Source: Phycisphaerae bacterium
GTDB lineage: Bacteria > Planctomycetota > Phycisphaerae > SM23-33
DNA length: 64,000 bases
Direction: 5' to 3'
Assembly: GCA_041687095.1 (NCBI GenBank)
Contig: JAWLCQ010000001.1
Span: 25,664 to 89,663, forward strand
Shown: in pieces, positions 35,693 through 64,000 of the stretch
Numbering within the stretch: the stretch's first letter is position 1
How the letters are laid out: each line of letters opens with the position of its first letter
Position numbers and translations under genes: made by a program
Notes under the pieces: model-generated
Told to the model about the DNA's origin: nothing
The model's input: only the letters and a program-made list of their open reading frames with translations
The model's database searches: none

Positions 35693-35749
35693 TGCCCTGC
35701 CGGATCAGGGCCTGGTGATCGTGCGTGTTCATTTGCGGGCTCCTGGGGT

Positions 35750-36694: not shown

Positions 36695-36713
36695 GCGGGG
36701 CTCCTTTGGAAAA

Positions 36714-36859: not shown

Positions 36860-36970
36860 CGGAAAACGAAAGTCTTCGCAGCGCGATCCCGCCCGGAGGG
36901 GAAGGCCCCTCCCTCTGCCTCGACCCCCGAGCATTCTGCTGGCATCGAGGACGAGCGGGCCTGTCTGCTG

Positions 36971-39337: not shown

Positions 39338-39367
39338 GATTGCCGTCCTGGCCCGCCCGGGTCGGGT

Positions 39368-40372: not shown

Positions 40373-40578
40373 GCTTCGCCTTTCCCAGCCAGAACAACGC
40401 CGGGTCGTTCCGTGTGTCGCGGACGCACCCGCCGCCACAGTGGTCGCCCACGCACGACGGGAACACTCCCGCGACCCAGAGATAGCAGGAATCGGCCTGC
40501 TCGTACAGCCCCAGACTGGGCGGCCCACACCAGGCGCGGCGGGGTCGAACGTGGCGGGCGGTTACCAGGGGATCGGCC

Positions 40579-41613: not shown

Positions 41614-41689
41614 GATCAGCTCCTTGCGATGGTCGGTCCATTATACCGGTCGGGCCCCGGTGCAGCAGCCCACGCTGCGCGGGGCGGCG

Positions 41690-45827: not shown

Positions 45828-46005
45828 GTACGCCGGGGCCCGGCAGGCGTTTCGGGGGGAGGCAAGCGCATCTCTTCGTGCCGTGCCGTTTTCAGAATTC
45901 ACGATGGCAGCAAACCCCATCGTCGCTCCGACGATGGGGACCGGACAATGCGATTGAACCGCGGGCGTGCCCACGAGGCGCGCCCGTCACCCAAGGAGAG
46001 GGCCT

Positions 46006-49000: not shown

Positions 49001-52000
49001 GCCTCACCGACACCGATCCCGCCACCGTCGAGCGCTACTACCTCTCGTCCATCGCCGACAGCGACGTGACGGGGACGCTGGACGCGCAGGTGGACCTGGT
49101 CCTGCCCTTCGAGGGCGACTGGGTGGACCCCGCCGACGCGGACCTGTGGCTGCTGGCGGGCGTGGACGCGCAGGGCGCCCTGGCGGACGTCGACGGTGAC
49201 TTCCCGACGTTCGTCATGCCCGACACGCTGAACCTCGAGGCGATGATCGACGGGCTGCGGACGCTGCTGACCCGCCTCCGCGACGCCTTGGGCACGCAGG
49301 CGTTCAACCTCAGCCTGCCCATCGTGGGCACGCAGCTCAACACCGCCTACCTCGACTCCCTGCTCGCCCGCCTGGGCGGTTGGTCGCCCTACGACGCCCT
49401 CCACGCCGCCACCTGGGCGACGAACAACCTCGCGGCGATGTTCGGGGCCTCCGCCCAGATCCAGGCGGCCGACACCGGGGACATGGACGCCGCCGACGCG
49501 GCGGCCGAGTGGATCATCCAGCTCTCCGACACCTACGCCTTCGGGGCCGCCGACGTGGACTTCGACCTGGGCCTGCCCGGGCTGGGGCTGGACATCGACG
49601 CCCACGCGGACGTGAGCCTCGACTGGGTCTTCAACCTGGGCCTGGGGTTCAGCAAGAACAAGGGCTTCTACCTCATCACCGACGACGGGGGGTTCGCGAC
49701 GGGCCTGGCGTTCGCCGGAGAGTCGCCCACGCTGGGCGTGGCGCTCACCGCGGGCGTCACCGATCTCGACGCGAGCGGGCGACTGGGCTTTCTGAACCTG
49801 ACGGCCGAGGCGATCCCCGGGGCGCCCATCGGGGCGAGCGGGCAGTTTGCCATCGACCTTTCGGGCCTCAACGGGCGGGTGTACTACAACCGCCTGGCGT
49901 CGTCGATCTACGACGTGGACGTCGCCTACGCCCTGTCCGCCGACGTCAATGCGCGGCTGGAGATCGCCTACAGCGCCAACTTCCCGTCGATCCTGTCGGA
50001 CCTGGTCATGCACTGGTCGTTCGACAACGACGACGCCACGGTTGACGCGCCGCTGTCGCTCGCCCTGGAGGACATCCGCATCGACCTGGGCGGGTATCTC
50101 GGTGGGGTCGTTTCGCCCGTGGTGGAACGCATCAACGAGGTCTTCGAGCCCCTGCAGCCGATCCTGAACGTTCTCAACACGACCGTGCCGGTGGTCTCGT
50201 ACGTCCTGGACCGCGACGTGACGATCCTCGATCTCGCCATCATGGCCGGGGGCTCGGGGGGCTACGACGTCGAGTTCCTCTCGGACGTCGCGGCCGTCGT
50301 CGACCTCGCCGGGCGGCTGCCCGCGCTCCAGTCGCACTACATCCACCTGGGGACGTACACGTTCGGTTCGGGCCTCGTGTCCGCCGACTCGCCGCTGGAC
50401 CTGGCGGTCAACGGCGGGGCGTTCGAGGGCAACGAGAACGCCCTGGTCGACGCCCGCAACGCCGGCGGCGGGTTCGGGGCGTTCCTGGACGACCTGCAGG
50501 AGATCGGGATCGAGATCCCGCTGCTGGCGGAGCCCCTCCGCGTCGTCGAGTTGTTCCTCGGCCGCGATGTTGAACTGGTGCAGTACACCACCCCGCGCCT
50601 GGCGCTGGACATCGACTTCCGCCAGCAGACCCCGATCATCTTCCCGTGGCTGGTGTTCACGATCGGGATGGACGCGAGCATCTCCGCGCAGGCGGCCTTC
50701 GGGTACGACACGCGCGGGTTGCGGCAGTACGCCGACGGGGGCGACACGGGCGACCTGCTCAACGGGTTCTACATGCGCACGGGCCCGCAGTACCCGCTGA
50801 TCCGCTTTGCGGGGCACGCCGCGCTGGGCCTGGGCGTGAGCCTCGGGGGCGTCGTCGCCGCCGGGGTCGAGGGCGGGATCGGGCTCGATGGGCACATCTA
50901 CGCCACCGACGCCGACGGCGACGGGCGCCTGCACTGGGACGAGCTGCCCGCGTTTGAACCGGGCGAGATCCTGTCGCTGTTCGATTGCGACGGGAGCATC
51001 TACTTCGACGTCCGCCTGTGGTGGGAAACGCCGATCGACGACGGAACCTACACGCTGGCGAAGGTGACGCTGATGGACTTCGGGGCCGGCACCGGCGGGG
51101 CCATCGAGCACGAGGCGGACATCGAGTTCGACCAGCGCGCCATGGGCAATTCCGTGGACCTCGGCCAGGCCCCGACCGCTCGCGTGTACCACCCCGAGCT
51201 GTGGGATTCGCGCGGAGTGCAGTGGTACCGCTTCTCCACCGACCGCGACAACGAGGTCTTCGATTTCTCGGCCGTCCGCGCCAGCGCGGGCAACGACATG
51301 GCCCTGGCCGTCTTCAACGCCGACGGGGAGCGCCTCGCCATGTCGGCCGGCTGGGGCAGTTCGCAGGCGACGCTCAACGACGTCCGCCTGGGCGAGCGGG
51401 GCGTGTACTACCTCGCCGTCATGTGCAACGACCCCGAGTGGCCGCTGGAGAGCGTCTCCGTCACGCCCAACACCGACGCGCTGACGGGCACGGTGGTGTA
51501 CTACGTCAACGACCTGGACGACTCGCCCGACCCGTACCTGATGGGCAACCCCTACACGTCCGCCCCGGGCGACGACGCCAACAGCGGTTTGGACCCCGCG
51601 CACCCCAAGGCGAGCATCTCCGCGGTGGTCTCATCGTTGACAGGCAACGAGGGGCGCGTCTACATCCTCGTCGACAGCGGGCACTACCGCGTGGACGACG
51701 AGGCCGAGCGCATCCGCCTGGCGCAGGGCAACGTGTGGTTCGTCGGGACCTGGCACACGAACGTGACGTTCGCCGCCGGTCCGCTGTTCGACCTGAACAA
51801 CGCCGGGGACGTCCACCTCTACGGGTTCAATCTCTACGGCGAGGGGACCGCGACGGCGGTCCGTACGCGCGGGGACGGCCTGTGGGACGCAGCCGCGGGG
51901 CATTATGCACCCGTCGATTCGCTCGTCATCGAGGGCAACCGCTTCGACGGCGTGGGCGTGGGCATCGACGCCGGGTGCTTCCAGAGCGTGGTGATCTCCG

Positions 52001-55000
52001 GCAACCGCTTCACGGGCGAAGGGGCCGCGGGCGTGGTGTTGGGCACATCGGCGATGGCGATGGTCTCGGGCAACAGCTACCGCGGGTACGTGGGGCAGTA
52101 CGGGCTGCGCACGGGGGGCCGGTTCAGCGCGTTCGTCGCCGACAACGAGATCGCCGGGACCGTCGCGTCCGTCTGGGCCGACGACGGCGGGTCGGTGTAC
52201 CTGCGCGGCAACACGATCAGCGGGAGCGTCGTGCTTCGCGGCGACCGCGACAACGTGGTCCGCGGGAACACCATTACCGGCGACGTGCGCCTCATCGCAC
52301 CGGCCGATCCGAACTGGGGCCAGATCGTCTGGCCGGGCGAGTGGGTGGAGGCCAACGCCCTGGCGCCCCTCCCCTACGACGAGGCGTTCTCCCAGGCGAT
52401 CGTGGGCAACGTGATCTCCGGGGCAGTCCGCGTCGAGTACGCGACAGCCACCCTCATCGAGGGCAACGTGTCCCTGGGCTCGGTGGTGGTGGCCGCGGGG
52501 AACAAGAACACGCAGATCCCGATCATCGTGCGGCTGAACGAGTCCATCGACGCCGGGGCGGGCGTCGCCGTCGAGGTGACGGGCCTGTCGTGGGCGGACA
52601 TCACCGACAACGCCCTGATCCGCGGGGCCACGGGCGTGCTCATCGACACCAGCGACCTGTGCACCGTCAGCGGGAACCTCATCGACGCGACGCAGTACGG
52701 CCTGCGGATCGTCAACGCCGGCAGCATGCTGGCGATGGAGAACCGCATCGACGCGGGCGTCGAGGGCGTCCGCATCGAGGGCAACTACTTCGTGCGGCTG
52801 GAGGGCAACGAGATCTCGGGCGGAGAGTCTTCGATCCGCGGGATCGGCAGTTGGGTGGTCCCGCGGGTGACGGGCAACCGCCTGACGGGCGGCGTGTGGT
52901 TCGAGGGCGACGGGCTGCTCGTCCCCCCCATGCTCCGCCGCCTGGGGCAGTTCCGCGAGAACGACGTCGACGGGACCGTGACGATCGACACCGGGCACCG
53001 CCTGGAAGTCCTCGGGAACCTCCTGCGGACCGGGCGACTCACCGTGACGACGGGGGGCAATGCGACGGTTTCGGACAACCTCGTGAACCAGGAGATGATT
53101 CTCACGATCGGCGGGTCCGCCGACGTGTCGTGGAACCTCGTGGACCTGGGCGACCTGCGCCTGACCGTCGCTTCGGGGCAGGCGTGGACCGTGTCCGACA
53201 ACACGCTCACCGGCGGATACGTCGGCGGGGGCGACCTCGTCGTCAGCGGCGGGACGCGGGCGCAGGCCCAGGGCAATACGGTTGTCAACGGCGACCTGCG
53301 AGTCACGATCACCGACGCCCCGACGTCTGCGACGCCCGCGAGCGTCCTCACCGACAACACGGTCTCCGGCGTCCTGTCGCTCGTCGGCGGGCCTGGCGCG
53401 GACATCCACGACAACCCGTCGCTCGGCGGTCTGCACGTGGCCATCGGCGGGGCGTGGGGGCAGGCGGATCGGGCCTGGCACACGCGGATCACCAACAACC
53501 CGGTCATCACCGGGGACTCCCACGAGGGGCGCGGGACGATCGACGTGACCGTGCCCGGGACGCTGCTGGTGAGCGGCAGCGTGGTGCAGCGCGGGCACAG
53601 CTACTTCACGGCGGCCGGGGCTGTGCGGATCGAGGGCAACGACTTCGTCGCGGGCGACCTGTTCGTCGCCATCCCCGGCGACAGCGGGACCTTCGGCGAG
53701 GCCCCCAGCGTTCTGGCGGGCAACTGGGTGCGGGCGGGGAGCGTGTGGTACAGCGGGGGGGGCGGGCTGGACCTCTACGACAACCCGATCCTCGACCGCA
53801 CGGTGGACATCGAGATCACCCAGCCGTGGACGGCCATGCCCGCGGGGCGGATGTACCACACCCGCGTCTTCACCACTCCGGGCGGGGCGCAGGCCATCGG
53901 CAACCTGCTCCTCGACATCCCCGGATCCGCCGAGGTGCGGGACACGCACTTCGACGGGTCGTGGGGCCTGCAGATCGGCGGGTCGAGCCTCGTGGGGCAC
54001 CTCGTCGAGAACGTCACGACGACATTCGGTGGGATCACGATCACGTCGGGCCCGGCGGCAACCCTGCGCGGGAACACCGTGTGGGGCGGGGTGACGGTGA
54101 ACGTGGCGGGCAACGAGTTGCCCGCGGGGACGGACTGGGCGACGGTCGTCGAGGACAACACCGTCAGCGACGGGATCTGGCTGAACCTCGACACGCGCGC
54201 GGAGGTCCGCCGCAACACCATCACCGAGAGCGGGCAGGCCTTCAGCGACGGCAGCCTGCGGATCGCGGGCGCGGCCGACAGCGGGCACGTGGTCACGGGC
54301 AACACGATCCACGGCGGCATCGAGATCACCAGCGGGCCGTGCGCGACGATCGAGGGCAACTCGCTGGCGTTCGGGAGCATCGTCCTGAACATCCCGGACG
54401 ACGAGGTCATCGTCGGGCAGGCGAACGTCACGCACATCCGCGGGAACGTGCTGGCGATGGGCGGGGTCTCGGCCCGCCTGGGCGCCGCCGCCGTCATCGA
54501 ACCGCTCGCCCTCAGCGGCGGGGGCGAACAGCCCAACGTGGTGAGCTTCCTCACGCTGACGGGCAGCTCGGCCGCCGCGCACCAGGTCCGCGGGAACCGC
54601 GTGACGGGCGACATCAGCGTCTCCGCCGGCCCGGCGGTCGTCATTGAGGACAACACCGGCCCGCTGGCGAGCGATCCGCTGGGGACGATCCGCGTCCGCC
54701 TCGGGGGGGCGGGGCAGGACGGGAGCATCGTGTCCGGCAACCGCGCGGGGACGATCGACCTTCAACTCGCCTCCGGCGGGACGATCGGCCACAACACCGC
54801 CGGCGCGGGCATGCTCCTGACGCTCGGCAACGCCGGTGGGGTGCTGCACAATACCGTGCTCGGCGGCGGGATGGCCCTCGCCGGCAGCGGCGGGGACGGG
54901 CATCTTGTGCAGGGCAACGTCGTCACGGGTGGGGTGCGAGTTTCCGCCTCGGCGGCCATCGCCCACGACATCACGGGCAACACGATTTCGGGCGCAGCGT

Positions 55001-58000
55001 ACGGCCTGGAAGTCACCGGGGGCGCCCCGGCCACGGTGCACGACAACGTCCGCATCGAGGGCGATTCCATCGGGATCCGCATCGTCGGCAACGCCCGCGT
55101 CACCGTCGAGGACAACCCCGCGATCCTCGGGACCGCCTGGGGCGTCTGGGCGGACGGGGACGGGGCCGTGCTGACGATCCGCGGCAACGACATTGTCGGG
55201 GGCGTCTACGTGGACAGCCTGCTGGGGGCCCTCATCGAGTCCAACGAGATCCACGACGGGACCACGGGCGTGTACCTCACGGGCGGCTCGACGGACGTGG
55301 TGCGCGGGAACGTCGTCCGCGGGTTCTCGACGGGCGTGCAGTTCCTGTCCGCGGCGGCCGAGGCGTACGGTAACGAGATTCACTCCAACGTCACGGGCGT
55401 CCGCACGCCGGCGACGCTGGGCGGTTCGGATTGGATCGCCCCCAACGCCATCCACCACAACACGGTGGGCGTCGAGGCCCTGGCGGGGGCGACGGTCCGC
55501 TTCAATCGCCTCGAGGCCAACGCCATCGGCATCGACGCCGCCGGCAGCGTCTCGGTGCATCACAACGTCCTGGCGGACAACAGCGCCCAGGGCGTGCTGG
55601 TCGACGCGGCCTCCAACGTGCAGGTGGTGAACAATACCATTGTGACCGCCGACGGGTTCGGCGACGGGGTGGTGGTGCAGGGCGGGTCCTCCGGGGCAGC
55701 GGTGCGGAACAACATCCTCTGGTCGCGCGGCGGGTACGGGCTGTACGTCGCGAACGACTCGCAGGTGGGCCTCGCCAGCGACTACAACAACCTGTACGCC
55801 TCGGGCAGCGGGCGCGTCGTGTGGTACCAGAGGGCGTACGACGACCTGCTGGACTGGCAGCTCGATTCGCTATACGACGCGCACTCGATCGGCTACACGC
55901 GGATCGACCCGCTGCGGGACGACCCGCGCTTCGTCGACCCCGCCGGCGGCGACTACCGCGTGCAGATGGGCTCGACGGGCATCGACCGCGGCGACCCGGC
56001 GAGCGATTTCACGCTCGAACCGTCCGTCAGCGGCGGGCGGATCAACCTTGGTGCGTTCGGTGGGACGAGCGAGGCCGCCCAGTCCTCGGCGGCGTATCTG
56101 CGCGTCGAGTACCCCGACTTCCACGCGGACTGGCAGGTGGACCGCGCGCGGAACATCCGCTGGTCGCAGTGGAACGTCGCGGGCGACGTGCGCGTCGAGG
56201 TCTACCGCACCGACGGGACGCCGGCCGCCGCGGTGGGGACGTTCGCGGCGGCGGCGGGCGAGTGCAGTTGGAGCCCCCGGATGGCTGGGCTTTCGGTGGA
56301 CCTCTCGCAGGGCTATCGCGTCCGCGTGACGTCCGTGAGCGACGGGAGCGTCTTCGCCGAGTCCCGCGAGCCGTTCTACGTCGTCCCCGTCGGGGGCACG
56401 TTCTACGTCAACGACGCCCTCACGGGCGACGACCAGTACACGACGGCCGCCGGGGACAACCGCAACCCGGGCCTGTCGCCCGACGCGCCCAAGGCGAGCG
56501 TCCTGGCGACCCTGCGCCTCTACGACCTCGGGGCGGGCGACGTCATCCGCATCGACGACGGGTACTACCCCCTGCCCACCAACCTGCTGCTGGGCGGGCC
56601 GGGGAGCGCGGGCGACGACGAGGGCGTACACCTCGACGGGCCGACGCTCGCGGGCAGCGAGGCCGTCCTCGACCGCGTCGTCACCCGCGCGGGGACGATC
56701 GCCGTGGACGTGAACCGCGCCGACGGGATCGAGCTGCGGAACCTCACGATCCGCAACGGTCAGCGCACGCTGTGGGTCCGCGAGGGGTCCGAGCGGTTCG
56801 TGGGTGAGCACCTGGACATCTCGGGCAGCGCGCTCGACGGGATCCGCATCGAGAGCGGCTGCGAGGACGTGTGGCTCCAGTCGCTGCGGGTGCATGGCAA
56901 CGGTGGGGCGGGCGTGTACGCCGCTCCTGCCCGGGTCACCCTCCTCGACAGCGAGATCGCCAACAACGCAGGAACGGGCGTTTCCTTGCCCGCGGCGGGT
57001 GCGGCGCGCATCGAGGGCAATACCGTCAGTGGGAACGCGGCAGGCATCGTCATCACGCACGCCGTCGCGGGCACGACGGCCATCGTTGGCTCGCTGGGGC
57101 ACGGCAACCTCGTGCGGAGCAATGCGGGCGACGGGATCACCGCGGTGGGCCGCGTGCTGGTCGAGGGCAACACGGTGTCGGGGCACACGGGGGCGGCGGG
57201 CATCCGCATCACCGAGGGCACGTCGGCGTATCCCGAGGCGAACGACAACGTCGTCAGCGGCAACGCGACGGGGATCGAGTCCAACACCCGCGCCTCGGTG
57301 CGCGGGAACCTGGTGTACGACAACGCCGTCCACGGCATCCGCGCGCGCGGGAGCGAGACCCTCGCGAACAACGTCGTTCACGACAGCGGCGTGGGCATCC
57401 AGCTCTGGTCGTACTACACCGGGACAATCGAGCACAACGTACTGTACGCCAACGCGACGGCCGCGGTGCGCGTCACGGGCCCCAGCACCGGGGCGATCTC
57501 GCTGCGCCACAACACCATCCATCAGACCGCCGGGGACGGCGTGCGGCTGGAAACCACCGCCGACGGTGTGACGCTCGATAACAACATCATCGTCGTCGAG
57601 GGCGGGTACGGGATCTACGTCTCCGACAACAGCCAGCCGGGCTTCTCCAGCGACGACAACCTGCTCCGCGCCACGGGCGGGGGGCGCGTGGGGTACTGGC
57701 AGGGCGAAGCGGGCAGCCTGGCGCAGTGGCGGCAGGCGTCGGGGCAGGACTCGCGCAGCCTGTCGGACGACCCGCGGTTCGTCAATGCGGCCGGCGGCGA
57801 CTACCACCTCCAGAGCCTTACCGGCAGCATGCACGGGGGGACGCTGGCGGTGGTGCTCGACGGGGCGACGGGCCTGCCCGTCGCGGCGGCGGGGACCCTG
57901 GAGTTCGACGGGGCCCAGTCGCCCGCCATCGACCGCGGGCGGGCGGGCAGCGCGTACGATCAGGAGCCGGCCCCCCACGGGGCGTTCGCGAACCTCGGGG

Positions 58001-61000
58001 CGTACGGGAACACTCCGCAGGCGTCGCGCAGCCCGGTGAGCTACGTCATGCTCCTGACCCCCGAGGGCGGGAGCGTGGTGATGACCGGGCGGTCTGCCAC
58101 CGTCCGCTGGCGGAGCGAGGGCTTCACCGGTGCGGTGGACATCGAACTGCTCCGCGGGGGGGCGTTCCTGCGGACCGTCGCCACCGGCGTCGCCAACAGC
58201 GGCGAGTACGCCTGGATCGCCCCCGCCGACCTGCCCGCGGGCAGCGACTACTCGCTCCGCATCACCCGCCCCGGCGGGGTGTCGGGCGCCAGTGCCACGT
58301 TCAGCGTCGAGGCCTTCCAGGGCGTGTACTACGTCAATGACGGTTCGGTGAACGGTGACGGGGCCGACTGGACCACGGCGGCGGGGGCGATGGGCAACAC
58401 CGGCCTGAGCCCCGACTCGCCCAAGGCGTCCATCGCGGCCGTCTTCGAGAGCTACGAGCTGGTCCCGGGCGACGTCATCTACGTCGACGCGGGCGTGTAC
58501 ACGCTGTCGAGCAACCTGCTGCTGACGGCCGCCCAGAGCGGGATCCGGATCGTGGGCTACCATGACGACGCCCACCCGGATCGCCAGGCGGTGTTGGACC
58601 GCGCCAACACGCTCGCCGGCAGCTACGCCATACAGCTCTCGGGCGCCTCGGGCGCCTCCCTGGAGCACCTGTCGTTCACCGGGGCGTACTCCGGCATCTA
58701 CGCCGCCGACGCCGTGGTCTCCGACGGGATCCGCATCGAGAACTGCCGCTTCTACGGCAATGAGACGTGGGGCGTGTGGCTGGGGGCGGGATCCGCCAAC
58801 GTCGTCGTCGAGGGAAGCCACTTCAGCGGCATGGCCGTTGCGGGCATCGACCAGAGGGGCGGCGTGTATCTCGGCGGCAGCGGGGCGCAGGTGCGCGGCA
58901 GCACCATGCACGACTTCGCCCTCGACTGGTACTACGGGATCGAGACCACCGGGGCGGACGCGACGGTCGATGGCAACACGATCACGAACGTCTTCAATGG
59001 CCTCCATGTGACGGGCGTCCGCTCGATGGTGAGCGGGAATACCGTGAGCGGGGGACGGACGGGCATGAACCTGTCGGGCTTCTCCAACGTCGCCGACTGG
59101 ATCGAAGCCTCGGGCAATATCGTGCACGGGCAGACGTGGCAGGGCATCTACGCCGGTAGCGGCGTGCGGGTCGTGGGCAACACCGTCTACAACGTGATCC
59201 ACTCGGAGCACACCGGGTCGCCCTCGGGGGCGATCCACGCCACGGGCGACATCCTCGATAACGTCGTGTACGCCAGCACCTGGGGCATCCGCTCGGGCGG
59301 GTACACGGGCATGACGGTCCGCGGGAACCTGGTGTACGGCTGCACCATCGGGATCTTCACCTGCTCGGGCACGCTGGAGGCCAACGAACTCCGCAACAAC
59401 GTGACCGGGATCAAGATCAGCGGGTACTACGAGGGCGTCGTCCGCAACAACCTCATCCGCGACAACACCCAGGCGGGCCTGGTGGTGTACGCCACCACGC
59501 CCTACGGGACGCGCCTGGTTGAGAACAACACCTTCCATCAGCCCACCGGCGACGCCATCCGCCTCCAGGAGACGGCCCTCAACGTCATCCTCCGCAACAA
59601 CATCATCCACGTCGGGGGCGGCTATGGCGTGTACGTGAGCAACGACAGCCAGAGCAGCCTGACCAGCGACTACAACCTGATCCACACCACCGGCAGCGGG
59701 AAGGCGGGCTACTGGCAGAGCGACCGCGCCACGCTCGCCGACTGGCGAAGCGCGACCGGAAAGGACGCCTGGAGCCTCTCGCAGGACCCGCTCTTCGTCG
59801 ACCCCGCGGGCGGGGACTTCCACCTCCAGAGCCCCCACGGCAGTTACCACGGCGGCCGGCTGGCCGTCGCGCTCGACTCCGCCACCGGCCTGCCCGTCTC
59901 CGTCGCGGGCCAGTGGGTCTCCGACGCCGCGCAGTCCCCCGCCATCGACCGCGGAGACGCGGGCGTCAGCTACGCCAACGAGCCCGCCCCCAACGGGGCG
60001 TTCGTCAACCTCGGAGCCTTCGGGGGCACCGCCCAGGCGTCCCGCAGCCCCGACGCGTACCTGACCGTCCTGTCCCCGTCTGCGGGGGAGACGTGGATGA
60101 CTAACCGCACGTCCGTCCTCCGTTGGCGCAGCCAGGACATGGATGGGGCGGTCGCCATCGAACTGCTTCGCGGGGGGACCGTGCAGAGCGTCATCGCCGC
60201 TTCCGCCCCCAACAGCGGCTCGTACGAGTGGCTGCTGCCCCGCGAACTAGCCGAGGCGGGCGACTACTCCATCCGCATCACCCGCTCGGGAGAGGTGGTG
60301 GGGCAGAGCGGGACGTTCAGCATCGTCCCGGCCGCGGCGGCTTACTACGTCAACGACGGTTCGGTCAACGCCGCGGGCGACTGGACGACGGCGGCCGGTA
60401 ACGATGCCGCCGACGGGCTCACGCGCTCGACTCCGCGGTCGTCGATCGCGGCGATTCTCGCGAGCTATCAGCTTTCCGCGGGCGACGTCATCTACGTGGA
60501 CGCGGGCGTCTACACGCTGTCGAGCAACCTGGTGCTGTCGGCGGCGCAGAGCGGGATCCGCATCGTCGGATACCACGACGAGGCCCACGAGGACCGCCGC
60601 GCCGAACTTCGCCGAGGCAACACCTCGAGTTCCAGCTACGCCATCCAACTCGCCGGGGCCGCCGACGTGAGCCTCGAACACCTGCACATCACGGGCGCCT
60701 ACCACGGGGTCTACGCGGCCAACTCGGCCGGGGCGACGGGGCTGACGATCCTCGACTGCACGATCTACGGCAACAGCAGCTACGGCGTGTGGGTGGGGAC
60801 GGGCAACCACGGCGCCGGCGTGGCCGACAGCGAACTGCACGGGCTGCTGTACAACGGCGTGCGGCAGGTGGACGGGGTGTACCTGGGAGGCAACTCGTCG
60901 CGGGTCATCGACAGCTACCTGCACGGCCACTCCAGCGGGAACAGCGACGCCATCGAACTCCCCGGGACCGACGCGGTGGTGAGCGGCAACGTGCTGGTGA

Positions 61001-64000
61001 ACAACCATAACGGGATCCGAACCAGCGGCGTGCGGGCCCGCGTGAGCGACAACCGCGTCGAGGGCGGGCAATCCGGGATGCTGATCTACGGACAGAACAA
61101 CGCCCGCTCGGAGTGGGCCGAGGTCGTCGGTAACACCGTCACCGGCCAGAACCATCAGGGCATCTACGCCGTCTACGCGCTGGTGCAGGGCAACACCGTC
61201 TATGCGGTGAACCACATCGAGGGCTCGGCGTCGGGGGCGATCGTCGGCAGCGGCTCCGAGATCGTCGGCAACACGGTGTACGACAGCAAGTGGGCCATCC
61301 GCAACGGCGGGCAGCAGGGTTTCACCCGCGACAACGTGGTGTACGGGAACGTGGTGGGGCTCTGGGTGGACCGCTCCCCGACGGAGGGCAACGTCGCCTA
61401 CTCCAACGGGATCGGCATCCAGGCGACGGGGCAGTCGCCCCGCGTCGCGAATAACCTCGTCTACGGCAATACCAGCGCGGGCGTGGTGCTGTACTACACC
61501 TACGGCACCCCGGCGGTGGAGAACAACACGGTTTACCAGACGGCGGGGGACGGTGTTCGCCTGGAGGGCAGCTCCCCGGCCCTCAACGTCGCGCTGCGGA
61601 ACAACATCGTCGTGATGGCGGGGGGGAACTACGCCCTGAACATCAGCAACGGCAGCCAGCAGGGCTTCACGAGCGACTACAACCTCTTTCACACCACCGG
61701 CGGGGCGAGGTTGGCGCTTCTGCTCGGGGAGCAGTACGCCGACGTCGCGACGTGGTTCTATCGGACCGGGTACGACCGCCACAGCCTCCAGGCCGATCCG
61801 CTCTTCTCCGACCCCGACGGGGCGGACGGGCGCCTGGGCTACGCGGGCGGGGTCAACGGCGGGGCGGATGACGACTTCTCGCTGTCGCCGGCGTCCCCGG
61901 GTGTCGGGGCGGGCGACCCGGGGACCTACGCCGCAGCGCAGCCGCCGGCGGGCCCGGGACGGATCACCCTCGGCCACCAGGGCAACACCGCCGGGGCCCA
62001 GACCGGCAGCGGTTCGGGCGTGCAGGTCGTCTCGCCCAACGGGTTGGACCGCGTGGCGGTGGGGGAGACGGTCTCCGTCACCTGGCAGTCGTGGGGCCTC
62101 GCCGCGGTTCGCCCCGTCGCGCAGGTCAACGCGGGCGGGACCGGCAGCGGCTACTGGAACACCGACGTCCTGCGCAGCGGCGGGACGACGGGCACGATCG
62201 CCGAGCCCGTCAACACCGCGGGCGTGACCGATCCCGCCCCCGCGTCCGTCTACGCCTCCTACTCCTCCGGGGCGTACTTCAACCCCATGAGCTACGCCAT
62301 GAGCGTCCCCGACGGGACGTACACCATCCGCCTGCACTTCGTGGAGCCCTCGCAGCACAGTTCCGTCGGGTCGCGGCGGTTCGACGTGCGGCTGCAGGGC
62401 GAGACGGTCCTGTCGAACTTTGACATCCACGCGACGGCGGGCGGGCGCTACATCGCCGTCGCCCGCGACTTCGTCGTCACCGCCTCGGGCGGGACGGGCA
62501 TCCAGATGAGCTTCGTCGAGCGAGCGGGCTACGCCATCCTCAGCGCCATCGAGATCCTCTGCGATCAGCCCCAGGGCCAGTCCCCCGTCTCGGCGGACTT
62601 GGACCTCTCCACCGACGGTGGGGCCACCTGGTCCCCGCTGGCCGCCGGCGTGCCCATGGACCGCCTGGGCCGCGGACAGTACGACTGGACCGTCACGCAC
62701 GCCCCCGCCGCTGACGTCCGCCTGCGCGTGACGGCCGGTGGGGTCTCGGACGCCTCCGACCGCTCCTTCCAGATCGTCTCGGCCGGCAACGACTACTACG
62801 TCAACGACGCAAACGTCGCGGCGGGCGACTGGACGACGGCTGTCGGCAACGATGCCAACTCGGGCAAGAGCCCTGACGCCCCGATGGCGAGCCTGGCGGG
62901 GCTGCTGGCGCTGTATCGCCCGGGCGCGGGCGACCGCGTCTTCGTCGATGCGGGCACGTACAACCTGGCCTCCTCGCTGGAGCTGGGGCCGGAGTTCACC
63001 GGCGTGCAGATCCTCGGGTACGCCGACGCGAACCACCCCGATCGCGAAACCGTCCTCGACCGCAACAACGTCTCCATGTCGGCGATCGTCTTCCGGGGGG
63101 CCGACGACGTTCTCCTGTCGGACCTCGCGATCACCGGGGGGTACGCGGGCGTGGCCCTGGCGGGGTCGGCCGACAGCGACCGCGTGACCCTTCGCGGGGG
63201 GCGGATGTTCGGGAACGACTACGCGGGCGTGAGCGTCGCCGCCGGCAACGACTTCGTCCGCATCGAGAACGTCGAGATCGACGGGCTCGCCCACGACGGC
63301 GTGCGGCAGAACGTCGGGATCTACAGCGTGGCCGACAACGCCACGATCATCGGCAACCGCATACACGGGCACACCGACGTCAAGTCGATCGACATCGCCG
63401 GCGGGTTCGCCGAGGTCGCCTTCAACGACATCTCGGGAAGCGCGTACGGCCTGTACCTGTACAGCGGATCGACGCAACGCAGCATGGTCCACGACAACGA
63501 GGTGCAGGCGGGCACGGGGTACGGAATGTACCTCATAGGCAACGTCCTGGCGCAGAACAACCGGATCCACAACATCTACGGGATGAACACCGGGTACGGC
63601 GTCTATGCGACGAGCGCCGTGGAACTGCTCGCCAACGAGGTCTATGACTCCGCCCGCGGGATCTACTCCAGCGGGCCGATCCGCAGCAACGTCGTGCATG
63701 GCTGCCAGTACTACGGGATCCACACGCAGGACCGCGACCAGATCGTCGAGGGCAACCGCGTCTACGACAACGCCGTGGGCATCCAGTACCACGGCGGGGG
63801 GCAGGTCGTGGGCAACTGGGTCTACTCGAACATGGTGGGCATCCAGTCCGGCTCCAGCGCCCGCGGGCGGATCGAGGGCAACGTCGTCTACGCCAACGAC
63901 GACGCGGCCATCGTCCTGAGCGGATCCAGCGTCTACGACATCGACGTGCTGTCCAACACCGTCTACCAGCACGTTGGCGATGCGATCTCGCTGGGAGGCG
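46006..64000 (+). CDS. Giant modular cell-surface protein, 3'-truncated by the window (at least 5998 codons in window): N-terminal non-repetitive region, PPC-like and EF-hand-like segments, then at least 5 tandem modules of Ig-like domain plus right-handed beta-helix (PbH1/NosD-like) repeats, with a malectin-like carbohydrate-binding insert
   Basis: Frame 1 (positions of form 3n+1) is open and protein-like from the ATG at 46006 (AAGGAGAG SD, in-frame TGA at 45955) to nt 64000. I checked this by translating about 15 separate stretches. It is absent from the ORF track, presumably because there is no in-window stop; all listed minus-strand ORFs here are antisense shadows. Motifs: DADGDGRLHWDEL (around 50900), PPC-like VQWYRFSTDRDNEVFDF...LAVFNADGE (around 51200), recurring YYVND..G..P.APKAS...GD.I.VD.G.Y.L module heads at about 51496, 56401, 58321, 60343 and 62791, beta-helix rungs (GN.V.GN..GI), malectin-like RRFDVRLQGETVLSNFDI...LSAIEIL (around 62330-62560). 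Confidence 0.8.
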   Translation, partial: MSADAVQRAKVRGSLTNGSGRIELLEQRILLSGTPLPDAARLGLIEGLTEFAQWTDRLGQTEAFTTGLPLSDGATLGTVTAAGDVVQTYLVDRVCQVLQSPGATLEDVVSALRDLGGSFVGDLGGRQVPLDVLVDPAAVVGAWVDSEISFSLPFQALLRPPSGVDLDDALGALGFTSGAEFALDALGSLTLDLTFGFDLSEGLGQAEQFFLRPVEMLLEADLSGADFDLPDLRMGFMDLGITHGSISLSGLADVSFVNPDADLLGRITLDELRNTAMDVLAAVTPGGTLQASLPLSGVLGAMGLGAPQISLNCLDVFQLPVEMGFNADFEALLPLGRIDPAMVLEAFDSLGASLTSLQRSDVFARIEGLGAQKLSDLLRLGENLRGIIDEVLMRPIDGAHGLYESAFDSAQSLLERLAAYPQSVLSSSADYLDGVLTYTLRFAASDALEGDFAYDYSDGPLSLSATGTVSGEVGTEVALTLGLDLSALSAEVIAAGAAPVGGQLDRSAEFSVQVGSDAPVRVTVPAEATADNAGLDDLVADINAALADAGLVAWTGAGAVLLVEARRVTVETADGERQRIALRTLGPWVAARLSVTPGAGAGQLGFTSAMEDHCRPEDFAFVQDAGASASMLVAAQMPEGHGRLGMLGGITLTNGAAWVGGTGYTPASPVPATVSFQIGQAGVRYGLGDLAETIGSDAAGLVEDSLTTDVQAGYQFTVTIEGQTAELLGLDPLAVRSIEVLYPDVVGGLAPVISTVGMDELLAAGQQITRGQIVEALHALVDFLQGLESLQGPLSWRLPGTGLSVNEMVDCAQDLARLIERINAEGLTALNDSLSGLAATVRDVLGLAEDQFLLRIEPASAAGEAALRMTLDLDYAFDRQAAVNLDLETLMGASLWPQMADYTSILGESGGGTVRVDGSAHVTIDLGVGLSSLDPFLYEGTAIGGALRVQGRDLAFDLTLGPLPGMAVAGGHLLVGDCPEGGPAAYGAGEIPAAAFRVGLTDTDPATVERYYLSSIADSDVTGTLDAQVDLVLPFEGDWVDPADADLWLLAGVDAQGALADVDGDFPTFVMPDTLNLEAMIDGLRTLLTRLRDALGTQAFNLSLPIVGTQLNTAYLDSLLARLGGWSPYDALHAATWATNNLAAMFGASAQIQAADTGDMDAADAAAEWIIQLSDTYAFGAADVDFDLGLPGLGLDIDAHADVSLDWVFNLGLGFSKNKGFYLITDDGGFATGLAFAGESPTLGVALTAGVTDLDASGRLGFLNLTAEAIPGAPIGASGQFAIDLSGLNGRVYYNRLASSIYDVDVAYALSADVNARLEIAYSANFPSILSDLVMHWSFDNDDATVDAPLSLALEDIRIDLGGYLGGVVSPVVERINEVFEPLQPILNVLNTTVPVVSYVLDRDVTILDLAIMAGGSGGYDVEFLSDVAAVVDLAGRLPALQSHYIHLGTYTFGSGLVSADSPLDLAVNGGAFEGNENALVDARNAGGGFGAFLDDLQEIGIEIPLLAEPLRVVELFLGRDVELVQYTTPRLALDIDFRQQTPIIFPWLVFTIGMDASISAQAAFGYDTRGLRQYADGGDTGDLLNGFYMRTGPQYPLIRFAGHAALGLGVSLGGVVAAGVEGGIGLDGHIYATDADGDGRLHWDELPAFEPGEILSLFDCDGSIYFDVRLWWETPIDDGTYTLAKVTLMDFGAGTGGAIEHEADIEFDQRAMGNSVDLGQAPTARVYHPELWDSRGVQWYRFSTDRDNEVFDFSAVRASAGNDMALAVFNADGERLAMSAGWGSSQATLNDVRLGERGVYYLAVMCNDPEWPLESVSVTPNTDALTGTVVYYVNDLDDSPDPYLMGNPYTSAPGDDANSGLDPAHPKASISAVVSSLTGNEGRVYILVDSGHYRVDDEAERIRLAQGNVWFVGTWHTNVTFAAGPLFDLNNAGDVHLYGFNLYGEGTATAVRTRGDGLWDAAAGHYAPVDSLVIEGNRFDGVGVGIDAGCFQSVVISGNRFTGEGAAGVVLGTSAMAMVSGNSYRGYVGQYGLRTGGRFSAFVADNEIAGTVASVWADDGGSVYLRGNTISGSVVLRGDRDNVVRGNTITGDVRLIAPADPNWGQIVWPGEWVEANALAPLPYDEAFSQAIVGNVISGAVRVEYATATLIEGNVSLGSVVVAAGNKNTQIPIIVRLNESIDAGAGVAVEVTGLSWADITDNALIRGATGVLIDTSDLCTVSGNLIDATQYGLRIVNAGSMLAMENRIDAGVEGVRIEGNYFVRLEGNEISGGESSIRGIGSWVVPRVTGNRLTGGVWFEGDGLLVPPMLRRLGQFRENDVDGTVTIDTGHRLEVLGNLLRTGRLTVTTGGNATVSDNLVNQEMILTIGGSADVSWNLVDLGDLRLTVASGQAWTVSDNTLTGGYVGGGDLVVSGGTRAQAQGNTVVNGDLRVTITDAPTSATPASVLTDNTVSGVLSLVGGPGADIHDNPSLGGLHVAIGGAWGQADRAWHTRITNNPVITGDSHEGRGTIDVTVPGTLLVSGSVVQRGHSYFTAAGAVRIEGNDFVAGDLFVAIPGDSGTFGEAPSVLAGNWVRAGSVWYSGGGGLDLYDNPILDRTVDIEITQPWTAMPAGRMYHTRVFTTPGGAQAIGNLLLDIPGSAEVRDTHFDGSWGLQIGGSSLVGHLVENVTTTFGGITITSGPAATLRGNTVWGGVTVNVAGNELPAGTDWATVVEDNTVSDGIWLNLDTRAEVRRNTITESGQAFSDGSLRIAGAADSGHVVTGNTIHGGIEITSGPCATIEGNSLAFGSIVLNIPDDEVIVGQANVTHIRGNVLAMGGVSARLGAAAVIEPLALSGGGEQPNVVSFLTLTGSSAAAHQVRGNRVTGDISVSAGPAVVIEDNTGPLASDPLGTIRVRLGGAGQDGSIVSGNRAGTIDLQLASGGTIGHNTAGAGMLLTLGNAGGVLHNTVLGGGMALAGSGGDGHLVQGNVVTGGVRVSASAAIAHDITGNTISGAAYGLEVTGGAPATVHDNVRIEGDSIGIRIVGNARVTVEDNPAILGTAWGVWADGDGAVLTIRGNDIVGGVYVDSLLGALIESNEIHDGTTGVYLTGGSTDVVRGNVVRGFSTGVQFLSAAAEAYGNEIHSNVTGVRTPATLGGSDWIAPNAIHHNTVGVEALAGATVRFNRLEANAIGIDAAGSVSVHHNVLADNSAQGVLVDAASNVQVVNNTIVTADGFGDGVVVQGGSSGAAVRNNILWSRGGYGLYVANDSQVGLASDYNNLYASGSGRVVWYQRAYDDLLDWQLDSLYDAHSIGYTRIDPLRDDPRFVDPAGGDYRVQMGSTGIDRGDPASDFTLEPSVSGGRINLGAFGGTSEAAQSSAAYLRVEYPDFHADWQVDRARNIRWSQWNVAGDVRVEVYRTDGTPAAAVGTFAAAAGECSWSPRMAGLSVDLSQGYRVRVTSVSDGSVFAESREPFYVVPVGGTFYVNDALTGDDQYTTAAGDNRNPGLSPDAPKASVLATLRLYDLGAGDVIRIDDGYYPLPTNLLLGGPGSAGDDEGVHLDGPTLAGSEAVLDRVVTRAGTIAVDVNRADGIELRNLTIRNGQRTLWVREGSERFVGEHLDISGSALDGIRIESGCEDVWLQSLRVHGNGGAGVYAAPARVTLLDSEIANNAGTGVSLPAAGAARIEGNTVSGNAAGIVITHAVAGTTAIVGSLGHGNLVRSNAGDGITAVGRVLVEGNTVSGHTGAAGIRITEGTSAYPEANDNVVSGNATGIESNTRASVRGNLVYDNAVHGIRARGSETLANNVVHDSGVGIQLWSYYTGTIEHNVLYANATAAVRVTGPSTGAISLRHNTIHQTAGDGVRLETTADGVTLDNNIIVVEGGYGIYVSDNSQPGFSSDDNLLRATGGGRVGYWQGEAGSLAQWRQASGQDSRSLSDDPRFVNAAGGDYHLQSLTGSMHGGTLAVVLDGATGLPVAAAGTLEFDGAQSPAIDRGRAGSAYDQEPAPHGAFANLGAYGNTPQASRSPVSYVMLLTPEGGSVVMTGRSATVRWRSEGFTGAVDIELLRGGAFLRTVATGVANSGEYAWIAPADLPAGSDYSLRITRPGGVSGASATFSVEAFQGVYYVNDGSVNGDGADWTTAAGAMGNTGLSPDSPKASIAAVFESYELVPGDVIYVDAGVYTLSSNLLLTAAQSGIRIVGYHDDAHPDRQAVLDRANTLAGSYAIQLSGASGASLEHLSFTGAYSGIYAADAVVSDGIRIENCRFYGNETWGVWLGAGSANVVVEGSHFSGMAVAGIDQRGGVYLGGSGAQVRGSTMHDFALDWYYGIETTGADATVDGNTITNVFNGLHVTGVRSMVSGNTVSGGRTGMNLSGFSNVADWIEASGNIVHGQTWQGIYAGSGVRVVGNTVYNVIHSEHTGSPSGAIHATGDILDNVVYASTWGIRSGGYTGMTVRGNLVYGCTIGIFTCSGTLEANELRNNVTGIKISGYYEGVVRNNLIRDNTQAGLVVYATTPYGTRLVENNTFHQPTGDAIRLQETALNVILRNNIIHVGGGYGVYVSNDSQSSLTSDYNLIHTTGSGKAGYWQSDRATLADWRSATGKDAWSLSQDPLFVDPAGGDFHLQSPHGSYHGGRLAVALDSATGLPVSVAGQWVSDAAQSPAIDRGDAGVSYANEPAPNGAFVNLGAFGGTAQASRSPDAYLTVLSPSAGETWMTNRTSVLRWRSQDMDGAVAIELLRGGTVQSVIAASAPNSGSYEWLLPRELAEAGDYSIRITRSGEVVGQSGTFSIVPAAAAYYVNDGSVNAAGDWTTAAGNDAADGLTRSTPRSSIAAILASYQLSAGDVIYVDAGVYTLSSNLVLSAAQSGIRIVGYHDEAHEDRRAELRRGNTSSSSYAIQLAGAADVSLEHLHITGAYHGVYAANSAGATGLTILDCTIYGNSSYGVWVGTGNHGAGVADSELHGLLYNGVRQVDGVYLGGNSSRVIDSYLHGHSSGNSDAIELPGTDAVVSGNVLVNNHNGIRTSGVRARVSDNRVEGGQSGMLIYGQNNARSEWAEVVGNTVTGQNHQGIYAVYALVQGNTVYAVNHIEGSASGAIVGSGSEIVGNTVYDSKWAIRNGGQQGFTRDNVVYGNVVGLWVDRSPTEGNVAYSNGIGIQATGQSPRVANNLVYGNTSAGVVLYYTYGTPAVENNTVYQTAGDGVRLEGSSPALNVALRNNIVVMAGGNYALNISNGSQQGFTSDYNLFHTTGGARLALLLGEQYADVATWFYRTGYDRHSLQADPLFSDPDGADGRLGYAGGVNGGADDDFSLSPASPGVGAGDPGTYAAAQPPAGPGRITLGHQGNTAGAQTGSGSGVQVVSPNGLDRVAVGETVSVTWQSWGLAAVRPVAQVNAGGTGSGYWNTDVLRSGGTTGTIAEPVNTAGVTDPAPASVYASYSSGAYFNPMSYAMSVPDGTYTIRLHFVEPSQHSSVGSRRFDVRLQGETVLSNFDIHATAGGRYIAVARDFVVTASGGTGIQMSFVERAGYAILSAIEILCDQPQGQSPVSADLDLSTDGGATWSPLAAGVPMDRLGRGQYDWTVTHAPAADVRLRVTAGGVSDASDRSFQIVSAGNDYYVNDANVAAGDWTTAVGNDANSGKSPDAPMASLAGLLALYRPGAGDRVFVDAGTYNLASSLELGPEFTGVQILGYADANHPDRETVLDRNNVSMSAIVFRGADDVLLSDLAITGGYAGVALAGSADSDRVTLRGGRMFGNDYAGVSVAAGNDFVRIENVEIDGLAHDGVRQNVGIYSVADNATIIGNRIHGHTDVKSIDIAGGFAEVAFNDISGSAYGLYLYSGSTQRSMVHDNEVQAGTGYGMYLIGNVLAQNNRIHNIYGMNTGYGVYATSAVELLANEVYDSARGIYSSGPIRSNVVHGCQYYGIHTQDRDQIVEGNRVYDNAVGIQYHGGGQVVGNWVYSNMVGIQSGSSARGRIEGNVVYANDDAAIVLSGSSVYDIDVLSNTVYQHVGDAISLGG

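Follow-up and report, generated by a model that had tools for sequence, protein, structure and literature searches.

The DNA analysed here, a stretch of 64,000 nucleotides referred to as the window, contains most of one single giant gene of about 21 kb, whose predicted product carries five tandem β-helix modules of the sugar-binding type that diverged from one another long ago. The analysis established the structure of this gene, the identity of its domains, the age and orthology of its modules and the size of the protein family to which it belongs. Confidence is high for the structure of the gene and for the old age of its module array, whereas a role of the protein in capturing glycans at the cell surface is about an even call; the blend of the two was judged to be the best overall explanation and a likely one. 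The host is an uncultured member of the Planctomycetota, probably of the class Phycisphaerae. Neither Rfam families nor tRNAs were found within the window. The features are as follows:

45171–45827, + strand: small upstream gene, 218 aa (alternative GTG start at 45156)
46006–64000, + strand: giant gene, truncated where the window ends (frame open from 45958 onwards)
46066–46116, + strand: N-terminal LEPR-XLL motif (RIELLEQRILLSG; NCBIfam NF012209)
46117–51495, + strand: unique, non-repetitive N-terminal region of ~1,800 aa, no Pfam family
51496–56400, + strand: module 1, β-helix of ~1,500 aa (Pfam NosD and Beta_helix, E 1e-35)
56401–58320, + strand: module 2, with head cap, β-helix, SDYN/HLQS tail, linker and Kre9_KNH Ig-like domain
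58321–60342, + strand: module 3, layout as in module 2, Kre9_KNH at 60073–60324 (Pfam)
60343–62790, + strand: module 4, β-helix and variant linker with a malectin domain
62791–64000, + strand: module 5, final module, incomplete in the window (Pfam NosD, 1.2e-16)

Frame 1 of the forward strand stays open for 6,014 codons (GC3 0.94), beginning at 45958 and running off the window, with an ATG start codon at 46006 (MSADAV...). The complete product, P0145 (7,027 aa), was recovered by an exhaustive HMMER search and is 100% identical to the window translation over 5,998 aa; judging from its length, the gene would end ~3.1 kb beyond the window. P0145 contains exactly five module heads and none after module 5, whose HMM envelope spans aa 5595–6107. 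Its C-terminus, located beyond the window, comprises NIDO-like and Big_5 domains and a dockerin region at residues ~6700–6910, with Dockerin_1 matching in two stretches (40.8 bits, cut-off 22.9). At the other end of the protein, the LEPR-XLL motif, a typical feature of giant proteins, was matched by NF012209 at open-frame residues 37–53 (22.2 bits, cut-off 17) and is kept in the orthologs P0140 and P0146. Apart from this motif, no Pfam or NCBIfam match was obtained in the 1,800-aa N-terminal region, which shares 51% identity with P0140 across 2,766 aa and 43% with P0146, while residues ~1215–1705 show 23–34% conservation in four further loci (L014, L015, L035 and L040). A PPC-like identity, suggested by eye for the domain preceding module 1, had no Pfam support. 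Neither a transmembrane segment nor a signal peptide of the classical kind was seen at the N-terminus of the giant protein, so that its predicted export would depend on the uncharacterised LEPR-XLL motif.

The original prediction of one giant gene that arose by internal duplication of tandem kilobase modules was borne out. The module heads had been placed at 51496, 56401, 58321, 60343 and 62791, and the motif [YF]YVND lies at exactly nt 51499, 56401, 58327, 60343 and 62794; when translated, the modules could be aligned over their whole length. All five match the Pfam families Beta_helix (PF13229)/NosD (PF05048) with 61–123 bits (cut-offs 24–26). Their size is less uniform than the proposed 2.0–2.4 kb, with a head-to-head spacing of 4,905, 1,920, 2,022 and 2,448 nt. 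The β-helix of module 1 contains 45 GNx[IVLF]-type turns. Module 2 reached a core HMM score of 555 and was matched by Pfam Beta_helix (1.1e-28) and Kre9_KNH (5.8e-9, at 58057–58293). In module 4, a malectin domain (PF11721) was identified at 62155–62487 (3.5e-14, 53.5 bits, cut-off 23), flanked by partial Ig-like pieces and accompanied by an Asp-box-like LSTDGGATW sequence within 62563–62790. The same type of linker is found in P0013 (43% identity); the AlphaFold2 model of the malectin linker had a pLDDT of 44.7, which is too low for use.

An Ig-like domain had been expected before each head, and this part of the prediction holds for some of them. Kre9_KNH (PF10342) was matched before 58321 and 60343 (37–39 bits, cut-off 24.6), and no Pfam match to it was obtained before 51496, 56401 or 62791. 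A divergent relative is located before 56401 (~56092–56391), as revealed by a match to the Ig domain of module 3 (blastp E 1e-9), and the pieces around the malectin domain precede 62791, while no such domain was found before 51496. The tail motif DYN...W...W...D..S...DP.F...HLQS, likewise described as a common element, was detected in modules 1 to 4. In the proposed layout, each β-helix leads into a conserved tail, then a linker and finally a small β-sandwich domain of the Kre9_KNH Ig-like kind; the linker of module 4 additionally contains the malectin domain. The entire protein is predicted to proceed from the LEPR-XLL motif through the unique ~1,800 aa and five right-handed parallel β-helix (PbH1/CASH-type) modules to the NIDO-like/Big_5/dockerin C-terminus.

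In the AlphaFold2 model of module 3 (pLDDT 80.6), residues 1–480 form a β-helix with short regular strands, mostly at values above 90. Foldseek searches with this model returned pectate-lyase-fold proteins with a probability of 1.0, and its neighbours included polysaccharide lyases, epimerases and tailspikes; with E≥1e-6 and low TM-scores, these matches are no more than generic for the fold. We propose that the protein may be displayed on the cell exterior as a long bead-on-string fibre for the capture, and possibly the cleavage, of complex polysaccharides, with each diverged helix providing a different binding groove. The dockerins, possibly together with the PEP-CTERM protein encoded next to the giant gene, would tether this fibre. 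We infer the location, the glycan binding or catalysis and the tethering. Elements that speak for an extracellular glycan role include the LEPR-XLL motif, Dockerin_1, Big_5, malectin, the neighbours in fold and sequence and the gene neighbourhood.

It is possible, if rather doubtful, that the modules are active enzymes, that is, concatenated lyases, depolymerases or epimerases with an own substrate for each helix, and not a binding or structural fibre. Such an array would agree with the structures nearest in sequence and in fold (the RbmB lyase, Pel9A, rhamnogalacturonan lyase, AlgE4/AlgG, GH110 and phage depolymerase tailspikes), with a Pfam Disaggr_assoc match in module 3 and with the presence of polysaccharide-degrading genes near both orthologs. 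However, every match is at the level of the fold, and residues of the catalytic type are not conserved across 110 modules: the conserved columns consist of Gly and Asn and the C-cap, and a conserved acidic or histidine cluster was not found in the helix body. The DPH(D/E) motif of epimerases is absent as well, with no DPH in all 6,014 residues. With neither a conserved catalytic cluster nor DPH(D/E), catalysis is unsupported. The catalytic residues of β-helix enzymes differ between families, so that a missing shared site is weak evidence. Membership in the mannuronan C5-epimerases (AlgG/AlgE) was rejected because none of the modules contains the DPH(D/E) motif that these enzymes use for catalysis. 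An assignment as NosD maturation protein was also dismissed, as TIGR04247 scored 23.9 bits (cut-off 300) and no nos genes are present in the window.

The 218-aa product of the small upstream gene begins with a signal-peptide-like segment and ends in a PEP-CTERM-like one, whose PEP-CTERM score of 16.6 bits is below the cut-off. Its counterpart in the ortholog locus, encoded at L080 9353–9967 directly upstream of P0146, shares 37.5% identity with it (E 3e-51) and has PEP-CTERM scores (21.3 and 23.3 bits) above the cut-offs. No homolog was found in the other loci or in the 429 nt upstream of P0140. There is no terminator-like site between the small and the giant gene, and neither promoter-like nor terminator-like sites were detected in 44400–46200. 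The glycoside-hydrolase-type genes located upstream in the window lie on the opposite strand, several kb from the giant gene, and P0146 is flanked by genes for eight sulfatases, one pectate-lyase-like protein and one GH42 enzyme. Searches of Pfam, NCBIfam and PDB sequences did not support an identity of the small protein as a cohesin. A more far-reaching and unlikely scheme would combine the two proteins into a two-part surface machine. In this scheme, the small PEP-CTERM protein, fixed in the envelope through exosortase-type sorting, would act as a receptor for the dockerins of the giant protein, cohesin-like but not recognisable as such from its sequence. The five helices of the giant protein would serve as five different glycan-specific binding or depolymerase heads, similar to concatenated tailspikes, that forage sulfated or pectic polysaccharides.

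The divergence of the modules was determined at both the DNA and the protein level. Neighbouring modules had been described as ~85% identical in DNA; after codon alignment, whole modules were 49–61% identical in DNA and 30–48% identical in protein. The best ungapped identity amounted to 70% over 500 nt, 64% over 1,000 nt and 50% over 2,000 nt, and the best pair obtained by blastn (57509–58790 and 59525–60803) was 69.9% identical over 1,303 nt. Across the 18 kb, no exact direct repeat is longer than 21 nt, and Tandem Repeats Finder gave no long period, as the period exceeds 500 and the identity is below 70%. Third codon positions are 47–57% identical between modules, and a value of 45% is already obtained for unrelated segments taken in frame from this gene; dN between modules is 0.5–0.9 and dS is 0.66–1.3 or not computable. 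No stretch of elevated synonymous identity between modules was found.

A full-length ortholog, P0146 (7,177 aa), is encoded in a different assembly (GCA_964616985.1) and is the only full-length one found. It contains five modules in the same order and with the same spacing as the window protein. Every module of the window protein has its best match in the P0146 module at the equivalent position (44–59% aa identity), whereas paralogous modules reach at most 48%, so that the orthology matrix is dominated by its diagonal. Given this one-to-one relationship of the same five modules, the array predates the split of the two organisms and was present in their common ancestor, from which the two proteins have diverged to 43–59% identity. 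The modules arose by tandem internal duplication, though long ago, and purifying selection has acted on their cap and tail motifs during the subsequent divergence. The gene for P0146 shows a self-match of ~68% in DNA over the same 1,303-nt segment; the similarity therefore reflects shared constraint and not recent exchange.

The original prediction had pointed to 58470–58590 as an example of long DNA identity, and this stretch is indeed 86% identical to its copy 2,013 nt downstream. It coincides with the best 120-nt window of the region (88% at 58466), the single patch that reaches 86–88%. A short gene-conversion tract within an old array is a very doubtful explanation for this identity between the heads of modules 3 and 4 (58427–58610 and 60440–60623). 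Conversion would account for the peak in third-position identity of 0.72–0.75 in 40-codon windows at ~58420–58450 (mean 0.56), but a peak of 30/40 matches among ~56 windows is not significant and 8 synonymous differences remain in 33 codons. Moreover, the same stretch is the most conserved segment of the protein (85% aa identity, GDVIYVDAGVYTLSSNL cap), and the ortholog shows equal self-similarity at the same place. The identity of the two heads is therefore attributed to protein constraint combined with strong codon bias (GC3 0.94).

It is highly improbable that the modules are near-identical kilobase repeats that were generated by recent unequal recombination, possibly with copies collapsed in the assembly. 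This view can draw on the 120-nt patch shared by modules 3 and 4 (86–88% identity) and on tandem modules elsewhere in the family that are near-identical (L033, 99.96% over 2,595 nt; L007, 94.7%; L009, 93.9%; L025, 88.1%). Against it stand the values for whole modules given above, the best long match of 70% over 1.3 kb, the near-saturation of synonymous sites and the lack of exact repeats longer than 21 nt. The claims of near-identity and recent expansion were consequently abandoned, the latter also in view of the same five-module array in P0146. A collapse of copies during assembly is contradicted by the complete P0145 with its five heads only and by P0146, which stems from an independent assembly and also has five modules with one-to-one orthology; module copy number did not differ between the window protein and this only full-length ortholog found. 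Recent tandem duplication of modules thus occurs elsewhere in the family (L033), but not in this gene. The gene was not placed in the class of near-identical tandem-repeat genes prone to unequal recombination, as the ~85% kilobase identity and the long exact matches of this class are absent.

An artefactual origin of the long frame, be it as a spurious ORF in DNA of 70% G+C or through the fusion of several genes by misassembly, is extremely improbable. In its favour, false long ORFs do occur in high-G+C DNA, four antisense ORFs (1,250–1,628 aa) overlap the giant gene and the related contig L079 is apparently chimeric. Against it, the sense frame has a GC3 of 0.94 and a GC2 of 0.49, the antisense ORFs mirror this pattern (GC1 0.95), Pfam domains lie in frame along the entire gene and two independent orthologs (P0140 and P0146) are collinear with it across thousands of residues.

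A scan of metagenome loci with a four-sequence alignment yielded ~35 loci with 2–5 tandem modules. At E≤1e-30, the family comprises 1,102 representative proteins, most of them giant and composed of several modules. The best 150 of these are 1,473–7,996 aa long, mostly several thousand, and contain several matched stretches each. Two to five full module cores were present in 88 of these 150 proteins, and the LEPR-XLL motif was found in 39; the median of the best module identity within a protein was 0.45. As its modules are old and diverged duplicates, the gene is an unexceptional representative of a large class that is already known. No experimental study of the giant multi-β-helix family was found in the literature searched.

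The main value of this analysis lies in a correction. In high-G+C DNA with strong codon bias, repeats seen by eye give an exaggerated impression of similarity, and a single conserved cap motif of 120 nt had been extrapolated to entire modules. The positive result is modest and consists in a widespread family of giant multi-β-helix proteins with a conserved module order and more than 1,000 representative proteins. If the modules are true glycan-specific binders or depolymerases, this family would be relevant to polysaccharide capture by Planctomycetota. Current views are not overturned by any of the results.

Among proteins of known structure, epimerases of the AlgE type and AlgG gave the best sequence matches (E ~1e-8 to 1e-6) and are among the top fold matches; at 12–14% identity and with DPH(D/E) absent, the window protein is not a member of this group. 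In AlgE enzymes, β-helix A-modules alternate with smaller modules. In giant repetitive adhesins of the RTX, Bap and SiiE types, the repeat unit is an Ig-like domain of ~100 aa, with copies that are often >90% identical. The window protein resembles these adhesins in being a very long, presumably extracellular protein of repeated units with C-terminal elements of the Ca-binding type (dockerin, EF-hand-like). In contrast to theirs, however, its unit measures 640–820 aa and is 30–48% identical between copies, and copy-number instability is neither seen nor expected.

Planctomycetes characteristically possess giant genes, and the products of most giant genes are surface proteins (PMC5177795, PMC5352709). 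The gene described here shares with the planctomycetal ones its length of >20 kb, its location in a Planctomycetota genome and its domains of the adhesion and carbohydrate-binding type. The papers on planctomycetal giant genes (Reva & Tummler 2008; Kohn et al. 2016, PMC5177795; Ivanova et al. 2017, PMC5352709) provide counts and coarse annotation and do not describe the five-module architecture or its conservation. C-terminal dockerin type I repeats and a host from the Planctomycetota are also common to the non-cellulosomal cohesin/dockerin systems of Planctomycetes that underlie the 'planctosome' hypothesis (PMC6461901), whereas the PEP-CTERM protein adjacent to the giant gene had no cohesin match in Pfam or the PDB sequence search.

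With the giant LEPR-XLL proteins (NF012209, 'LEPR-8K'), the window protein has in common the motif itself, scoring above the cut-off, and a length of ~7,000 aa. [quoted passage not shown] Large proteins with tandem CASH β-helix domains are on record for the PVC superphylum (PMC12057145). The Menyafoubacter protein described there is likened to the window protein by its architecture, as both are very large, presumably extracellular and composed of tandem β-helices of the pectin-lyase fold, with a disaggregatase-related signal. It differs in its Sec signal peptide and in its PL6 lyase, Rhs and internalin domains, whereas the window protein is distinguished by the LEPR-XLL motif, the linkers with Kre9_KNH and malectin domains and the dockerins.

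The giant gene lies in frame 1 of the forward strand, which stays open for 6,014 codons, from position 45958 up to the window end, and starts with an ATG at 46006 (MSADAVQRAK...). Its composition (GC1 0.67, GC2 0.49, GC3 0.94) is typical of a genuine coding sequence in DNA of 70% G+C. Four antisense reading frames of 1,250–1,628 aa tile the gene:

46747-51630, reverse strand, antisense reading frame
51634-55869, reverse strand, antisense reading frame
55873-60246, reverse strand, antisense reading frame
60250-63999, reverse strand, antisense reading frame

They mirror the codon composition of the sense frame (GC1 0.95, GC3 ~0.65) and were therefore rejected as genes and classified as shadows. 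The complete product, P0145 (7,027 aa), was the top match in an HMMER search with module 3 and shares 5,998 residues with the window translation at 100% identity.

The tandem modules were recovered where they had been predicted. The head motif [YF]YVND occurs at five sites (nt 51499, 56401, 58327, 60343 and 62794), the tail motif D(Y/F/G)(H/R)(L/V), preceded by DP.F, was found in modules 1–4, and the alignment between modules extends from the head through the Ig-like domain, so that both the modules and their coordinates are real. Since the entire P0145 carries only these five heads, with module 5 ending around residue 6107, the list of modules is also complete. The proposed module length of 2.0–2.4 kb applies in part: a regular array (period 2,016 nt) is limited to modules 2–4, whereas the first head spacing is 4,905 nt (followed by 1,920, 2,022 and 2,448 nt). 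Every module scored well over the Pfam gathering scores for Beta_helix (PF13229) and NosD (PF05048). The Ig-like domain said to accompany each module was identified as Kre9_KNH at the end of modules 2 and 3; module 1 contains a divergent relative of the module 3 domain (E 1e-9), and in module 4, pieces aligning to the first and second halves of the Ig-like domain flank a malectin domain.

The similarity between neighbouring modules was far lower than the ~85% DNA identity originally predicted. Comparison of the gene with itself by blastn gave a single long pair (57509-58790 versus 59525-60803, 69.9% over 1,303 nt), another of 65.8% over 570 nt and a few short pieces (46–156 nt) of 70–85%. After codon alignment, whole modules shared 30–48% protein and 49–61% DNA identity. 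Third codon positions matched at 47–57%, compared to 45% between in-frame stretches of the gene that are unrelated to each other, a baseline caused by the GC3 of 94%. Module pairs had dN values of 0.51–0.91 and dS values of 0.66–0.92 (Nei-Gojobori) or up to 1.27 (LWL85), with several pairs not computable for dS, and the best ungapped matches reached 70% over 500 nt, 64% over 1,000 nt and 50% over 2,000 nt. The patch cited as an example of high identity does reach 86%, yet nowhere else in the whole region does a 120-nt stretch match as well (maximum 88%, at 58466). This best-matching patch codes for the cap GDVIYVDAGVYTLSSNL...SGIRIVGYHD, where protein conservation is highest, and contains 8 synonymous differences in 33 codons; third-position identity was at most 0.75 in every 40-codon window.

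The array had further been interpreted as a recent expansion whose copy number might be underestimated due to assembly collapse. Both suggestions were contradicted by a full-length ortholog, P0146 (second HMMER match, 7,177 aa; GCA_964616985.1, contig CAZTVF010000002.1, locus L080), which carries the motif LEPRILLS and five heads (residues 1944, 3526, 4166, 4837 and 5656). Its modules show the same number, order and spacing as those of the window protein, including the longer fourth module. The best P0146 match of each window module is the positionally equivalent one (44, 57, 59, 53 and 48% identity and scores of 3,091, 1,856, 2,028, 2,072 and 1,388 for modules 1–5), compared to at most 47% (score at most 1,188) for non-equivalent P0146 modules and at most 48% (score at most 1,212) for paralogs inside the window protein. 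All four module duplications are therefore older than the split of the two organisms, whose orthologs are now 43–59% identical. This one-to-one correspondence, the divergence of synonymous sites and a longest exact direct repeat of 21 nt across 18 kb argue against recent expansion, and the agreement in module count argues against collapse. Self-comparison of the L080 giant gene (65% G+C) yielded 67.8% identity over 1,303 nt at an offset of 2,007, in the segment homologous to the best pair of the window. The ~70% identity is therefore a conserved property of this segment, which spans the helix tail, linker, Ig-like domain and next head, and not the result of recent exchange.

At E<=1e-3, the exhaustive HMMER search retrieved 9,940 representative proteins, of which 1,102 remained at E<=1e-30. 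Among the best 150 representatives, 88 contained 2–5 full module cores and 39 an LExRxLL motif within the first 150 residues; their best intra-protein module identity had a median of 0.45 and was at least 0.8 in only 3. The value of 0.52 for the window protein is typical. The module alignment additionally recovered 76 metagenome loci (20 kb each), ~35 of which carry 2–5 tandem modules on one strand, with open frames of up to 7,099 aa running off the locus ends. The closest relative was located in another locus for 81 of 103 modules. Near-identical tandem modules were detected in four loci:

L033, 7795-10389 versus 10606-13200, 99.96% DNA identity over 2,595 nt
L007, 7763-8864 versus 10124-11225, 94.7% DNA identity over 1,105 nt
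L009, 10113-11153 versus 12456-13496, 93.9% DNA identity over 1,042 nt
L025, 7484-10297 versus 10001-12778, 88.1% DNA identity over 2,836 nt

These pairs are recent duplications or conversions, although L033 is possibly an assembly artefact. Their occurrence in a few relatives makes tandem duplication by unequal exchange, the mechanism originally proposed, the likely origin of the modules in the family, but in the giant gene it acted long ago.

A second architecture was observed in P0160–P0167 and ~40 other HMMER matches (~5,400–6,400 aa), whose 22–28 matched stretches all align to module residues ~320–670 (last helix turns, tail and linker), with no full module core. Another ortholog, P0140 (51% identity over 2,766 aa), passes in frame into a GATase_5 (PurL-like) sequence around 8700-8994 of its locus L079 (ENA ERZ27247709 k141_513807) and then stops; L079 is probably a chimeric short-read contig with its junction inside the long helix of module 1.

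The helix region of module 1 (~1,500 aa) contains 45 GNx[IVLF]-type turns, ~22 residues apart. The AlphaFold2 model of module 3 (overall pLDDT 80.6) comprises a beta-helix (residues 1–480, pLDDT mostly >90), followed by a linker of low and a beta-sandwich of moderate confidence; the prediction for the module 4 malectin linker was unusable (pLDDT 44.7). Solved-structure neighbours of the module 3 model, matching at the level of the fold only (E>=1e-6, identity 10–17%), include polysaccharide lyases (RbmB, Pel9A, rhamnogalacturonan lyase), the mannuronan C5-epimerases AlgE4 and AlgG and phage tailspike depolymerases, in agreement with a sequence profile search. The epimerase motif DPH(D/E) is absent from the window translation of the gene. 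Among 110 modules from the window and related loci, the conserved columns comprise helix Gly/Asn residues, the cap and the tail SDYN..W..W..D..S..P.F, with no common acidic/histidine cluster.

The N-terminus of the protein matches NCBIfam NF012209 (LEPR-XLL, 'LEPR-8K') above the cut-off, a domain also described at the N-terminus of a Vibrio protein of ~8,000 aa (PMC10868602); in the window protein, neither a classical signal peptide nor a strong transmembrane segment was apparent there. The following 1,800 residues have no Pfam or NCBIfam family match and are conserved in orthologs and partly in more distant loci. The C-terminal part of P0145 (last 920 residues) carries a Big_5 Ig-like domain and two Dockerin_1 stretches as well as a weak NIDO-like match, and ends in an Ala/Pro-rich tail.

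The giant gene is preceded by the following features:

9275-14515, forward strand, hybrid histidine kinase (1,747 aa; ~7 PAS, HisKA_3, HATPase_c, receiver)
14771-19883, reverse strand, MoxR ATPase, DUF58 and TgpA-type transglutaminase trio
22586-27583, forward strand, reading frame of 1,666 aa with vWF_A, VWA and YfbK_C in the last 480 residues and no Pfam match in the first ~1,180
27662-40561, mostly reverse strand, carbohydrate-active-type cluster with melibiase-like, GH43-like, rhamnosidase, BNR_2 (BNR-sialidase-like), FAD oxidoreductase (PF12831) and nucleoside hydrolase genes (all reverse)
33765-35498, forward strand, abhydrolase with a weak glucuronyl-esterase match
40582-44470, reverse strand, SNF2-family helicase (with DUF3670), then SWIM zinc-finger protein
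45171-45827, forward strand, small gene (218 aa) immediately preceding the giant gene

The closest named relatives of the MoxR ATPase are from Phycisphaerae/Planctomycetota MAGs (72–74% identity; nearest relative overall 80%), so that the lineage is poorly sampled. Overlapping frames at 5558-8542 (forward) and 5756-8683 (reverse), of ~1,000 aa each, have near-equal codon statistics, leaving the coding strand ambiguous over 5.6–7.9 kb; the forward frame has a thymidylate-synthase-like stretch only at residues 796–940 and no assignment for its first ~790. The SNF2 helicase and SWIM protein separate the glycoside-hydrolase cluster from the giant gene. The 218-aa protein has a signal-peptide-like N-terminus and a PEP-CTERM-like end (IPEP-hydrophobic-RRR), and its ortholog adjoins P0146 in the same position (L080 9353-9967; 37.5% identity, E 3e-51); the latter scores above the PEP-CTERM cut-offs and the window copy just below. 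On visual inspection, the small protein looks like a cohesin-type beta-sandwich, without support from database searches. The genes flanking P0146 comprise eight sulfatases and an esterase, along with a pectate-lyase-like gene and a GH42 fragment; its neighbourhood is thus sulfatase-rich, whereas the window cluster is of the melibiase/GH43/rhamnosidase/BNR type.

Based on domain content and gene neighbourhood, the five diverged beta-helices would most likely form one extracellular fibre that binds, and perhaps also cleaves, complex polysaccharides and is tethered by its dockerins. Non-cellulosomal dockerin/cohesin systems have been proposed for Planctomycetes (PMC6461901), and tandem CASH beta-helix domains are known from large proteins of the PVC superphylum (PMC12057145). 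Giant genes, mostly for surface proteins, are referred to as a known hallmark of Planctomycetes in statements of PMC5177795 and PMC5352709 that cite Reva & Tummler 2008. The giant gene belongs to this already known kind.
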